From Promethearchaeota archaeon (GTDB taxonomy: Archaea > Asgardarchaeota > Thorarchaeia > Thorarchaeales > Thorarchaeaceae): 64,000 bases of DNA. The stretch is taken from NCBI GenBank assembly GCA_014728035.1, contig WJMJ01000148.1, positions 32,001 to 96,000 of the forward strand, written 5' to 3'. The notes below the pieces were generated by a model that saw only the letters and a program-made list of their open reading frames with translations, did no database searches and was not told where the DNA came from. Both the position numbers and the translations under genes were made by a program. Below are positions 11,760 to 47,716 of this stretch, piece by piece (positions within the stretch are counted from its first letter, which is position 1; the number at the start of each line of letters is the position of its first letter).

Positions 11760-11801
11760 GAAAAAGTGCTAAATCTACCAGGTGATATCGGAAGATTGAC
11801 C

Positions 11802-11984
11802 GTTCATTGTTTCATAATCAAATTCATACATATGAGCGTTGACATCCCAGGTAACGCTAATGGGTGAAACTTTGTCCTCATCAGGAACTGGTATCTATTA
11901 ACCACAGTATCAATTTATATCAACCAGTATAAGCTCCTAACACAACTTGTCCCAAAATGTCCAGGTAGCCACATCAGGATAGGA
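11802..11984 (-). mobile_element. decayed copy D of the 183-bp dispersed element
   Basis: Same right end (ATGAAC-GGT; ACC at 11799-11801). TATAAGCTCCTAACACAACTTGTCCCAAAATGTCCAGGT matches copy B at 32/39 positions in the same register. Left end has decayed. Confidence 0.7.
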
Positions 11985-32344: not shown

Positions 32345-32905
32345 ATGACTTCAACTTATTTCCAACGTCTAGAAAGGTTGAAAAATAGTATCGAAAAGGA
32401 AATGGTGCCTCTTCAAGAACTTCCTGATGAATTCGCGTTTTTCTCTTTAGAAGCTAGAAATCTAGATGGAGAATCTAGAAATAAAGCTCTTGGTATCATA
32501 TCTGAGATAATTGACATATCTATTGAAAAGACCAGACTAGATATTGCAGGATTGATAGGTGTTGTAGGTGGACATATTGTCGAATTAGATCAAACTGATC
32601 CAATGATAATCTTTCCTCAAACATACAATCTTTTTATGAACGTACTTAATATCGCAAAACCAATACTCAAGATTTACAAATATAATCCAAATCAAGACCC
32701 ACATGAACTCAACAAGCAATATCCTGAAAGATTCTTTGCATGGTTGGTCCTAGATGATGCGTGGCGTCCAATCTATGCGATTGTTTCAAATTCTGAAAAA
32801 GCGAGAAATATGTTATCTAATAACTCACAATTTCTAAAATTTCTTACACCTTATTTAGAATATCATGAAGGATGCAAAAAGATTCATCGAGTATTAAAAC
32901 AATAA
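32345..32905 (+). CDS. uncharacterised helical protein, paralogue 1 of a three-member family
   Basis: MTSTYFQ...DIAGLIGVVG...AKPIL..Y..NPN...FAW.VLD.AW...YHEGCKKIHRVLKQ shared with 33820 and 34842. Confidence 0.8.
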   Translation: MTSTYFQRLERLKNSIEKEMVPLQELPDEFAFFSLEARNLDGESRNKALGIISEIIDISIEKTRLDIAGLIGVVGGHIVELDQTDPMIIFPQTYNLFMNVLNIAKPILKIYKYNPNQDPHELNKQYPERFFAWLVLDDAWRPIYAIVSNSEKARNMLSNNSQFLKFLTPYLEYHEGCKKIHRVLKQ

Positions 32906-33101
32906 GCATTTCAAAACAGAAACAGACTTCTCAGTAATCTAAATATAAACCAAGATTACTGTTAGATCAAAAAATAGATTATTCATTTTCATGATTTTGC
33001 TGAATACAATTAATTTATGAGGTGTTCAGTATTGCAAAAACATAATTCACTTATTACTAATTGAAAATCCTATTACATTAGTAGTACTTCAAGGTGTTTC
33101 T

Positions 33102-33593
33102 ATGAATCAAACACAAACAGACAAGGATAAACTGGTCAATCTTATCAAAACCTCATCCATGAGTTCTATCGACATAATGAGTGAAAGATTAGAAATTTCA
33201 GTAGAGGAAACACTAGCCCTTATTCATGAAGCAATAGATGAAGGTTTGATTCAAGGTACAATCACTGAAGACGAATCAAGATTCTATAGGACAGATATAG
33301 ATGAAAGCTCTGAACCCAGCAGCCAGAAAGAAATTGAGATATTGAAGATTTCCTCTCCAGTTGGAAAGTACGTTATCATCATTGGGTTTGCATCATTCAT
33401 CGCTGGACAGGTTCTCGTAAGGTTAGAGGATATAGCATTTTCATACGACTTGGGAGCTTCTCTAGTTGTTGGTAGCCTTTTCATTATTGCTCTAGGTATG
33501 TTCTTTGCAAGTAGAGTGAGAACTGAGAAGAGAGAATACTACCCAGAATCTTCTGCTAGAAAAGAGAGGACCATGCCAGAGAAGTATAGCTAG
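33102..33593 (+). CDS. PCI/DDRGK-like winged-helix protein with two TM helices
   Basis: SSIDIMSERLEISVEETLALIHEAIDEGLIQGTITEDESRFY; paralogue of 7730-8170. Confidence 0.75.
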   Translation: MNQTQTDKDKLVNLIKTSSMSSIDIMSERLEISVEETLALIHEAIDEGLIQGTITEDESRFYRTDIDESSEPSSQKEIEILKISSPVGKYVIIIGFASFIAGQVLVRLEDIAFSYDLGASLVVGSLFIIALGMFFASRVRTEKREYYPESSARKERTMPEKYS

Positions 33594-33819
33594 CCTCTTA
33601 ACAAAGATTGCAACCAGTCAACATTTGATCAAACTGAGATTCATTCAACTGTATCAGAATGCGGTTTCGCAAAATCCATGTTATAAAAGAAAAAAGCAAA
33701 TTTCCCATTACTCAATTGGAATAAAATCTACATCATGTGATCATTAAATTATTTACCAGTCTAATTCAGAAAAGAATATTCTATATATGGGAGGTTTATT
33801 CTCAAAGTAGGGAATCTAA

Positions 33820-34836
33820 ATGACTTCAGCGTATTTTCAACATCTAGAAGAATTACAAAAGCAAATAGACAAGCAAAATGTGACTTCAGAACAGTTAGCA
33901 TCCACTTTCCTATATTTGGTATCTAGCGCAAAAAATCTTGATGTTGAATCTCAAAACGAAGCTGTTGTTAAAATATCCGAGTTAGTAGAATTTGCAAGTG
34001 TGAAAGGAAGTCCTGAGCTAGGAGCTATGCTTGGGATAATTGGTGGAGCAATCATTGAACTCAAAAAAGCAAATCCAATTCTATTACTACCCCAAGTATA
34101 CACACTCATGATGAATATGCTTCATCATGCAAAACCCATTCTAGAAATCTACGCTAATAATCCAAATCCGGACAAACGAGAGTTAAAGCAGAGTAACCCA
34201 CAATCCTTCTATGCTTGGGAGGTTCTTGATAAAGCATGGTTACCTCTCACAACAATCTTTACACACAGTCAACAAGCAAGAGAGAAAATACGAAAGGATA
34301 AGAAATTCCTCGAATTTCTGGAGCCATATGTAAGTCATCACGAAGGATGCATGTGGATATACAGAGCTCTTCATATTTATGATGGAGAGATAATGGTCTT
34401 TCATCCTGAACAGATGTTAGGATATCGAATTATGGTTGAAGATATTGACCACCCATTTACATTATCTAACTTGCTGACTGAGAAGCTAGTAGGAGACCCC
34501 ACTCAAGGATGCATTCCCAAGAAACCAAAGAGCTCCGATATCGCTCAATTCTGGATTTATAATTGGGAGGTTTTGAAAGAGATGCCAGAAGATTTCAAAG
34601 ACCTTTCTGTAATGAAATATCTTAAGAGTCCAGCTTATATGGGTAGTGAAAGCTGGATGTTTGATCTTTCGTTCTATAATGGTATTCCAGTTCTTGTTCT
34701 GATTGACACGGACTTCAAATTTGGTTTTAATATTCCTGGTTCATTTCCCGAGCTCTCATCAAAAATTACAATACTCGAAACTCTTGATAGAACATCCGTA
34801 CAAGATTGGTTATCGAAATTACGAAATACGGAGTAG
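33820..34836 (+). CDS. uncharacterised protein, long paralogue 2 with an extra C-terminal domain
   Basis: N-terminal ~185 aa align with 32345-32905; about 150 additional residues. Confidence 0.8.
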   Translation: MTSAYFQHLEELQKQIDKQNVTSEQLASTFLYLVSSAKNLDVESQNEAVVKISELVEFASVKGSPELGAMLGIIGGAIIELKKANPILLLPQVYTLMMNMLHHAKPILEIYANNPNPDKRELKQSNPQSFYAWEVLDKAWLPLTTIFTHSQQAREKIRKDKKFLEFLEPYVSHHEGCMWIYRALHIYDGEIMVFHPEQMLGYRIMVEDIDHPFTLSNLLTEKLVGDPTQGCIPKKPKSSDIAQFWIYNWEVLKEMPEDFKDLSVMKYLKSPAYMGSESWMFDLSFYNGIPVLVLIDTDFKFGFNIPGSFPELSSKITILETLDRTSVQDWLSKLRNTE

Positions 34837-34841
34837 GTTTT

Positions 34842-35600
34842 GTGCAAGATAGAATAAAAGAAATGTACTTTCAATTCCTTATTGGACTTAAAGAACATGT
34901 AATAGCTGATAATGACCAGATACCAAATCTAGCAGACGTGCTTTCGTTCCTGCATACTATTGGTCCCAGATTAGAAATGGAACTTCAGGAAAAAGCGTTG
35001 ACGGACATTGCTGAAATCATGCAAATATCAGTTAGGATGGGACGTCTCGATATAGCTGGTTTAATCGGTGTTGTAGGTAGTGCGATAGTGAAACAAGAAG
35101 AAGTCTACTCAGTTCAGTATGTTAACCAAGTTTTTAATCTATTTATGAACTGCCTTAATATAGCTAAACCAATACTCCGTGAATACGAACAGAATCCAAA
35201 TCTTAATCTGAATATTTTGAGAAAGAAAGAACCTGAAAGACATTTTGCATGGGATGTGCTAGATGACATATGGCGAGCAATGTATGCGATACTCGTACAT
35301 AGTGAAAAAACAAGAGTGGTTCTTAAAGATAATCAAAAATTGCGTGATTTTCTTGGACTATATGTTGGATATCATGAAGGGTTGAAGTCAGTTACTGAAA
35401 ACTTAGACATATGTGGACACGATACGATAGGAGTTTATATGGGCTGATACTGAATGAATGTCTGGTTACCAGACACACATTCCCTGACCAGGACCGAGCC
35501 AGTTCCAGTACCGTTTCTGGACGAACAACGCTCGGGTGTCCAAGTTTGTCCAACTAATAATGAACGGTGTAAGCAAATTTATGATATACTACAGAATTAG
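34842..35600 (+). pseudogene. paralogue 3, interrupted near its 3' end by the 183-bp element (reads into the element and stops at 35447)
   Basis: Deleting 35383-35568 gives CAT GAA GGG TGT AAG CAA ATT TAT GAT ATA CTA CAG AAT TAG = HEGCKQIYDILQN*, matching HEGCKKIHRVLKQ* of paralogue 1 in length and motif. The altered protein may still be functional. Confidence 0.75.
35383..35565 (+). mobile_element. copy A of the 183-bp non-autonomous element, flanked by GGT direct repeats
   Basis: GGT at 35380-35382 and 35566-35568; ungapped homology to 47514-47696 in inverted orientation; removal restores the host ORF. Confidence 0.88.
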
Positions 35601-47234: not shown

Positions 47235-47416
47235 GTTCTATGCTCAATGGACGATATTTGATATCCGAACATTGTCCGTCCAGAAAGGTACTAGAGCTGG
47301 CTTGATTCTGATTGGAGATTCTGTGTCTTTTAGCCAAATCTTCATCCTGTTTGAGTCTCTATAGGATCCATTCATATCTTGTCCCAAAATATCCAGGTTT
47401 TCGACAGCTGTTTACA
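47235..47416 (-). mobile_element. diverged copy C (182 bp) of the element, flanked by AGT direct repeats
   Basis: ACT at 47232-47234 and 47417-47419 on the plus strand; collinear with copy B except a 1-bp deletion. Confidence 0.8.
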
Positions 47417-47513
47417 ACTCATCAGATGGAGCTATACTATAGTGATTGTGGTTAAAAAACTTGAATTACACTCTCAATCAACATAATTAGTATCCAAAAA
47501 AAGAATAGAAACC

Positions 47514-47696
47514 GTTCATTTTTAGTTGGACAAACTTAGACACCCGAGCTTTGTTCGTCCAGAAACGGTACTGGAACTGGCTCGGTCCTGGTCAGGGAAT
47601 GTGTGTCTTTAGACCAAATCTCTATTCCAGATCACTCCATATAAACTCCTATCAGATCTTGTCCAACAATGTCCAAGTTTTCAGTAGCTGATTGCT
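47514..47696 (-). mobile_element. copy B of the 183-bp element, inserted in a terminator, flanked by GGT direct repeats
   Basis: ACC at 47511-47513 and 47697-47699 on the plus strand; removal restores GAGACCCC-TTCG-GGGGTTTC-TATTCTTTTTTT. Confidence 0.88.
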
Positions 47697-47716
47697 ACCC
47701 CCGAAGGGGTCTCAAT

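Follow-up and report, generated by a model that had tools for sequence, protein, structure and literature searches.

Four copies of a short element lie within the window

The window, by which we mean the whole 64,000-nt stretch that was analyzed (positions 32001-96000 of contig C121), encodes proteins whose named relatives are Thorarchaeota, and its host is accordingly taken to belong to that group. It contains three tandem paralogues at 32345-35600 that encode an unknown helical protein with a common HEGC motif. One of these genes (34806-35600, plus strand) is broken by a mini-element, copy A (35382-35565, plus strand), which is 184 bp long and has T as its first base. Its left GG core (35380-35381) is preceded by G, making the target GGGT, while its right GG core (35566-35567) is followed by T35568, which comes from the target. 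The true mobile unit is thus 184 bp plus one GG, with the T of the left triplet counted as element. Excising these 186 bp changes the host product from 213 aa, as present, to 202 aa, and gives the C-terminus ...HEGCKQIYDILQN*, where the intact paralogue (32345-32899, plus strand) has HEGCKKIHRVLK. An earlier, preliminary description of this DNA had claimed that removal of copy A restores a paralogue-like C-terminus, and the excised product does match that of the paralogue. In the paralogue itself, the codons at this point give GGAT, not the GGGT target. No orthologues of the interrupted gene were retrieved from 40 relatives with the query used.

Copies B (47514-47697, minus strand; GG cores at 47698-47699 and 47512-47513) and C (47235-47417, minus strand) share one orientation and are separated by 96 bp, in the interval between a pair of convergent genes. 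Copy B belongs to the youngest subfamily; copy C is older, with AG at each side and a decayed structure. Adjacent or nested copies also occur elsewhere, at C166:185-282 in the same genome and at loci L021/L054, L023, and L060. Copy B breaks the 3' arm of a host hairpin with a UUCG loop (47698-47713, minus strand). Its excision yields an 8-bp stem ahead of a T tract, and the filled site folds at a similar energy; the interruption of a host hairpin is suggestive only. A DNA-level search for the empty B and C sites in three relatives matched the element alone. Copy D (11799-11984, minus strand) is decayed, with its right end intact and its left junction gone.

All four copies were located where the preliminary description had placed them, and its measurements were reproduced. 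Copies A and B align without gaps at 85% identity, each with 183 bp between GGT triplets, while copy C has 182 bp between AGT triplets and is 67-68% identical to A and B. Copy D, said to keep its right end, indeed does so, and is 60-61% identical to A and B, above 300 shuffles (mean 43%, maximum 53%; nhmmer E 7.6e-16). The element has no terminal inverted repeats, as previously noted. Instead, each end carries two TTGGACA-like motifs spaced 10 bp apart, at unequal distances from the junctions and in opposing orientation. In copy A, the left-end pair spans 35403-35419 (motifs at 35403 and 35413) and the inverted right-end pair spans 35537-35553 (motifs at 35537 and 35547). These motifs are presumed TnpA-binding sites. 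Models for resolvases, IS110, and TnpB, run genome-wide, gave no match inside the window, which agrees with the earlier statement that it holds no transposase.

The element inserts precisely at GGGT and is abundant

We find that junction sequences are strongly constrained over a few bases. Left junctions in the same genome are GGGT in 27/27 scorable cases and right junctions are GGT in 24/24, although such tallies are approximate, with a few copies mis-called by parsing. The remaining flank positions are variable, except for an A/T bias at -5/-6, and target specificity ends at 4-5 bases. Among about 72 two-ended copies, some 60 have GGT on both sides, and about five have a different third base on each side (GGT/GGC at L033, L064, and L073; GGC/GGT at L060 and L068). 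No GGC/GGC pair occurs among these copies. The sole matched variant is the AG/AG of copy C, and mismatches at the first two positions are seen in few copies (L019, L160, L161). The preliminary description was right that the junctions are precise, but its proposed (R)GT core gives way to GG. These junctions are most simply explained by a GG core: the T on the left would open the element, and the T on the right would reflect a preference in the target. This would be favored over a 3-bp duplication because the third base differs between sides and GGC/GGC is absent, a call based on small numbers (third-base mismatches in about five copies, plus the single AG/AG pair of copy C).

Mobility, proposed earlier for this element, is borne out by empty orthologous sites. 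The flanks of insertions in relatives were joined, with the element and one GG removed, and aligned to the genome containing the window. This gave scarless, gap-free empty sites for six relative insertions (L042, L046, L048, L071, L072, and L093). All six align across the junction as continuous reading frames, and two of them (L042 and L046) also align as DNA, with 72% identity over 791 nt for L046. We show that the element is mobile and inserts precisely at GGGT, and that nothing beyond its GG core is duplicated.

The abundance first noted from four copies extends across the genome. BLAST detected 51 loci, comprising about 17 complete or near-complete copies, about 30 halves cut off by the end of a contig, and a small number of remnants. 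Because many of the loci are such halves, they correspond to roughly 30-35 copies. Over 130 nt, ten of the left halves show no differences, nor do nine of the right halves, which points to a recent burst. Family matches are present in 23/36 genomes of the same taxonomic family, with zero matches in 24 genomes outside it. The minis disrupt genes and cause many contig breaks.

Three 32-bp stubs are also present in this genome, at C94:66297-66329 (minus strand), C95:138-171 (plus strand), and C99:58475-58509 (plus strand). Each consists of GG, the first 28 nt of the left end (one motif), and the last four bases of the right end, and at one of the three a mini has entered the left junction; a search of 40 relatives found no equivalents. 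The bin has a contamination of 8.5%, and the clustered tRNAs of contigs C26 and C161 (13 and 4, respectively) suggest viral or contaminant sequence.

The same ends flank IS607-family genes

The motifs found in the minis also lie upstream of an intact IS607 tnpA. This gene, on contig C16, is the only resolvase-domain gene detected in the genome by a resolvase model search. It scores 167 bits against NF033518 (cut-off 110), has the invariant catalytic YARVS, and sits behind the same type of left end as the minis. The element around it (L008, C16:29369-31891) is an internally deleted parent, in which the left end is followed by the intact tnpA, the 3' part of a cargo gene, and a tnpB that begins at about residue 259 and runs off the contig. 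End profiles further match C25:212647-210043, where a frameshifted MerR/serine tnpA accompanies a 713-aa TnpB that has a zinc finger and the D/E/D motifs of RuvC; this TnpB scores under the NCBIfam TnpB cut-offs. Outside the motifs, the ends of the C25 parent and those of young minis diverge in sequence. Intact tnpA and intact TnpB thus lie on separate remnants (C16 and C25, respectively) within this genome.

Complete elements in relatives are 8.1-8.7 kb long and consist of a left end, tnpA, a giant antisense ORF, a tnpB of 710-735 aa, and a right end. Two are complete from end to end (L149 and L150, the latter with broken frames), and two others (L154 and L156) have the same gene order. The left end of L149 is almost identical to that of the minis. 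No IS110 or DDE gene was found in longer elements with these ends among the loci examined. Sequence comparison therefore supports the assignment of the minis as non-autonomous IS607-family elements. The preliminary description had compared the element with IS607 and with IS110/IS1111; only the former comparison is supported. Its reading of a non-autonomous element moved in trans by a non-DDE enzyme is upheld, as the same ends flank a tnpA above the NCBIfam IS607 cut-off and enclose, in the 8-8.7 kb parents, a serine tnpA and a TnpB of about 720 aa. The TATA box, the omega-RNA-like structure, and the TnpB parent did not feature in it.

Shortened and divergent elements are also seen. At L105:2818-3541 (about 720 bp), the start of tnpA is fused in frame to the end of tnpB, and L163 holds a 210-aa frame ending in the tnpB tail. 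Both are intermediate deletion derivatives. In the genome containing the window, locus L010 (C123:1517-7138) pairs a divergent TnpB of 556 aa, head to head, with a gene distantly homologous (25%) to the cargo; this is probably a second, related transposon family.

The mini interior holds a TATA-like box and a predicted omega-RNA scaffold

Across 39 aligned minis, the middle of the element varies everywhere except at a TATA-like box and several stems. In copy A, the archaeal TATA-like box lies at 35434-35440 (plus strand) and is kept in 27 divergent minis. The predicted omega-RNA scaffold (35461-35567, plus strand) comprises stems a (35461-68/35485-92), b (35472-76/35536-40), c (35494-99/35530-35), and d (35504-08/35517-21). 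It would be followed by a guide segment of flanking host DNA (35568-35587, plus strand), predicted from IS607 TnpB biology (PMC10690162). The box lies 36-43 nt ahead of stem b in 48/50 copies, whereas its separation from the left end ranges over 41-85, clustering near 45, 55, 76, and 85, in steps of about 10 bp. This constant spacing to the scaffold, and not to the left end, ties the box to the scaffold. A start about 25 nt past the TATA-like box would land at the 5' edge of stem a.

The stems show signs of covariation. For stems a, c, and d, each stem's own partner outpairs swapped partners (0/5000 permutations, 33 dereplicated minis). Overall, pairing is at 81%, with 51 double-change cells versus 24.5 in shuffles (0/500) and 33-50% pairing in slid controls; since the shuffle controls ignore relatedness, these statistics are inflated. 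Stem b is almost invariant, with little covariation (p 0.10), and is overlapped by the inner motif of the right-end pair. Stem a crosses stem b, and the scaffold is thus probably pseudoknotted. In ten tnpB-bearing right ends, stem d is 100% and stem b 92% paired with double changes, while stem a is 78% paired, and just 70-78% in unfitted alignments. Support among the predicted stems is therefore best for c and d and moderate for a, with b little varied. Compared with that of the parents, the mini scaffold has the extra stem c and longer loops. A model made from the parents alone retrieves all four window copies. Folded as single sequences, copies A and B do not stand out (z about -1.3), and an Rfam search with copies B and C gave only chance matches, with no model, RAGATH-18 among them, reaching the gathering threshold.

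It is also conceivable, if unlikely, that the minis are passive IS607 passengers, in which the TATA-like box survives from the promoter of tnpA and the stems are relics or stabilize a transcript, with no working guide RNA. In the parents, the sequence is likewise AT-rich about as far from the left end, and the stem structure is lost in the old copies C and D. Comparisons of the box with host promoters also gave no clear signal: TATA upstream of tRNAs is found in 18% versus 15% in shuffles, with many tRNAs sitting in clusters, and host gene starts show only a weak rise at -65 to -40. However, the mini interior upstream of stem d is no simple copy of parent coding sequence, covarying stems are retained across many genera, and the box keeps its spacing to the scaffold where its distance to the left end changes. 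These features suggest instead that the mini is probably a mobile omega-RNA cassette that aims TnpB at its own empty site. A search for second genomic targets of 24 predicted guides found 0 at 12-14 nt, where about 1.5-1.8 were expected; this difference is not significant.

A proposed mechanism

We propose that the element has two roles, as a non-autonomous mini-transposon of the IS607 family and as a guide-RNA cassette, with a probability of roughly 0.7. The mobilization step is very probable: TnpA, supplied from elsewhere in the genome, would bind the 10-bp-phased motifs, excise the mini as a circle across its two GG cores, and reinsert it at another GG. The guide-RNA step is somewhat less secure but still likely. 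Transcription from the internal TATA-like box would yield a pseudoknotted scaffold of about 105 nt, reading through the right end into about 20 nt of host flank. TnpB acting in trans would load this RNA and cut the empty allele beside a G-rich TAM. An empty allele, in which GGG precedes the guide match, would be cut, while the filled allele (CGG) would be spared, and recombination repair from the filled allele would restore, keep, or spread the copy. The logic of such retention, in which the empty site is cut and the copy restored, has been shown for IS605 and IS607 TnpBs (PMC10690162, PMC10055086).

Relationship to known systems

The ends of the minis agree with the end layout and (G)GG target described for the IS607 family (PMC6188088). 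As in IS607, IS1535, and ISC1926, there are no terminal inverted repeats and no duplication, and the target is (G)GG (PMC6188088). The short direct-repeat motifs at unequal junction distances are likewise shared with the family (PMC6188088), as is the MerR-HTH/serine TnpA of the parent. In contrast to the family, the minis are gene-less, 184 bp long, have only two motifs per end, and show a strong extra preference for T after GG; their parents differ in their size (8-8.7 kb) and giant antisense cargo gene.

The IS607 element CboIStron forms circles, leaves scarless donor joints, uses TGGG as both target and TAM, and has a scaffold ending in CGG (PMC10690162). The minis resemble it in having a GG core and a G-rich target (DGGG-T, compared with TGGG in CboIStron), and their predicted scaffold likewise terminates in CGG, a feature that would protect against self-cleavage; a circular intermediate would also be expected for the minis. 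An engineered mini-IS of CboIStron moved in trans (PMC10690162). The minis differ in being natural and multi-copy, with no group I intron, their own TATA box, and a TnpB of about 720 aa.

The closest precedent is provided by gene-less, PATE-like IS200/IS605 elements that encode omega-RNAs (PMC10055086). These have no protein gene and retain both ends, and TnpB from another element uses their guide RNA in trans. However, PATEs use a Y1 HUH transposase and single-strand hairpins, whereas the minis have the ends of IS607 serine recombinases. The RAGATH-18 reRNA of the IS607 TnpB of ISFba1 (PMC11061315) similarly has a pseudoknotted right-end scaffold and takes its guide from the flank. Its 187-nt scaffold is separate from a tnpB of about 390 aa, while the predicted scaffold of the minis is about 105 nt, overlaps tnpB in the parents, and has no Rfam match. 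A literature search, mostly outside subscription journals, turned up no description of naturally occurring IS607 minis that carry a promoter of their own and none of Thorarchaeota TnpB; PMC11529989 makes no mention of IS607 or TnpB. The principle of gene-less omega-RNA elements is published for IS200/IS605, and the IS607 minis are a new, unusual family.

These elements suggest that an IS607 transposon has been split in Asgard archaea into parts that act in trans: a recombinase, a nuclease, and dozens of mobile cassettes that probably make guides. Free of coding constraint, the minis display a minimal predicted scaffold of about 105 nt, a putative start site, the GG core, and a likely G-rich TAM. 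The TnpB family of about 720 aa is uncharacterized and has more than 100 proteins, and these features of the minis open it to direct testing. Fanzor2 has been proposed to descend from IS607 TnpBs.

The parents carry a giant cargo protein with a Cas1-like fold

The antisense gene of the parents encodes 1,700-1,870 aa (L149, L150, L153, L154, L156, and L160). The predicted structure of its first 276 residues (pLDDT 90) has Cas1 or casposase proteins as all of its best 12 structural matches in VIA-align (Z 9.1-12.4, rmsd 3.6-4.2, 148-193 aligned residues), while the next unrelated match has Z 6.2; Foldseek finds Cas1 at just E 0.05. Residues E92, H182, and D192 are invariant in 50 sequences. A RecA-like fold is matched by residues 597-853 (Z 12.3, rmsd 3.3, 182 aligned), and a PD-(D/E)XK-like motif was found by eye between the two parts. 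No significant Pfam or PDB sequence match was obtained for the protein. The family has at least 132 members, from Thorarchaeota where named, and another cargo fragment lies at C41:15546-16535 in the same genome.

More speculatively, and with considerable doubt, the minis might form a dispersed, self-promoted guide-RNA repertoire, with dozens of cassettes in each genome, that programs the oversized Thorarchaeota TnpB, with the Cas1-fold/PD-(D/E)XK-like/RecA-fold cargo acting in guided repair or cassette acquisition. If true, this would be a natural system of TnpB and Cas1 in Asgard archaea that has no CRISPR arrays.

It is very unlikely that the cargo, and not TnpA, inserts the minis by casposon-like integration. 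Its N-terminal domain has the catalytic fold and invariant residues of Cas1, and a distant homologue exists on C123. However, integration by casposases or Cas1 yields terminal inverted repeats and long target duplications. Neither is found at the mini junctions, and this reading was given low weight because Cas1-type duplications are missing there; the GG core and phased motifs fit TnpA substrates (PMC6188088).

Equally improbable is an origin as an IS110/IS1111 derivative carrying a bridge RNA, or as a PATE of the IS200/IS605 type that a Y1 HUH transposase mobilizes. The minis are reminiscent of IS1111 in their sub-terminal inverted motifs, short core, and structured RNA, and of IS605 in the fixed tetranucleotide at the left end. 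One IS110 transposase gene is present in the genome (L006, on C150), but the end-profile search gave no match on that contig. The mini ends are thus not shared with an element of a DEDD recombinase; the longer elements that do have them encode serine tnpA and TnpB. Target specificity that ends at 4-5 bases also argues against such an origin, and the left end has direct repeats with no evident hairpin, contrary to the IS605 option. A conventional MITE, mobilized by a DDE transposase and flanked by a duplicated 3-bp GGT target, as the matching GGT of most copies and AGT of copy C might suggest, is largely refuted by the lack of terminal inverted repeats and of a matched duplication (the third base is unequal in about five copies and never jointly changed) and by ends that belong to serine-tnpA elements. 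Besides these families, the genome encodes an unrelated 486-aa Cas12f-like TnpB at C128:786-2246 (L009).
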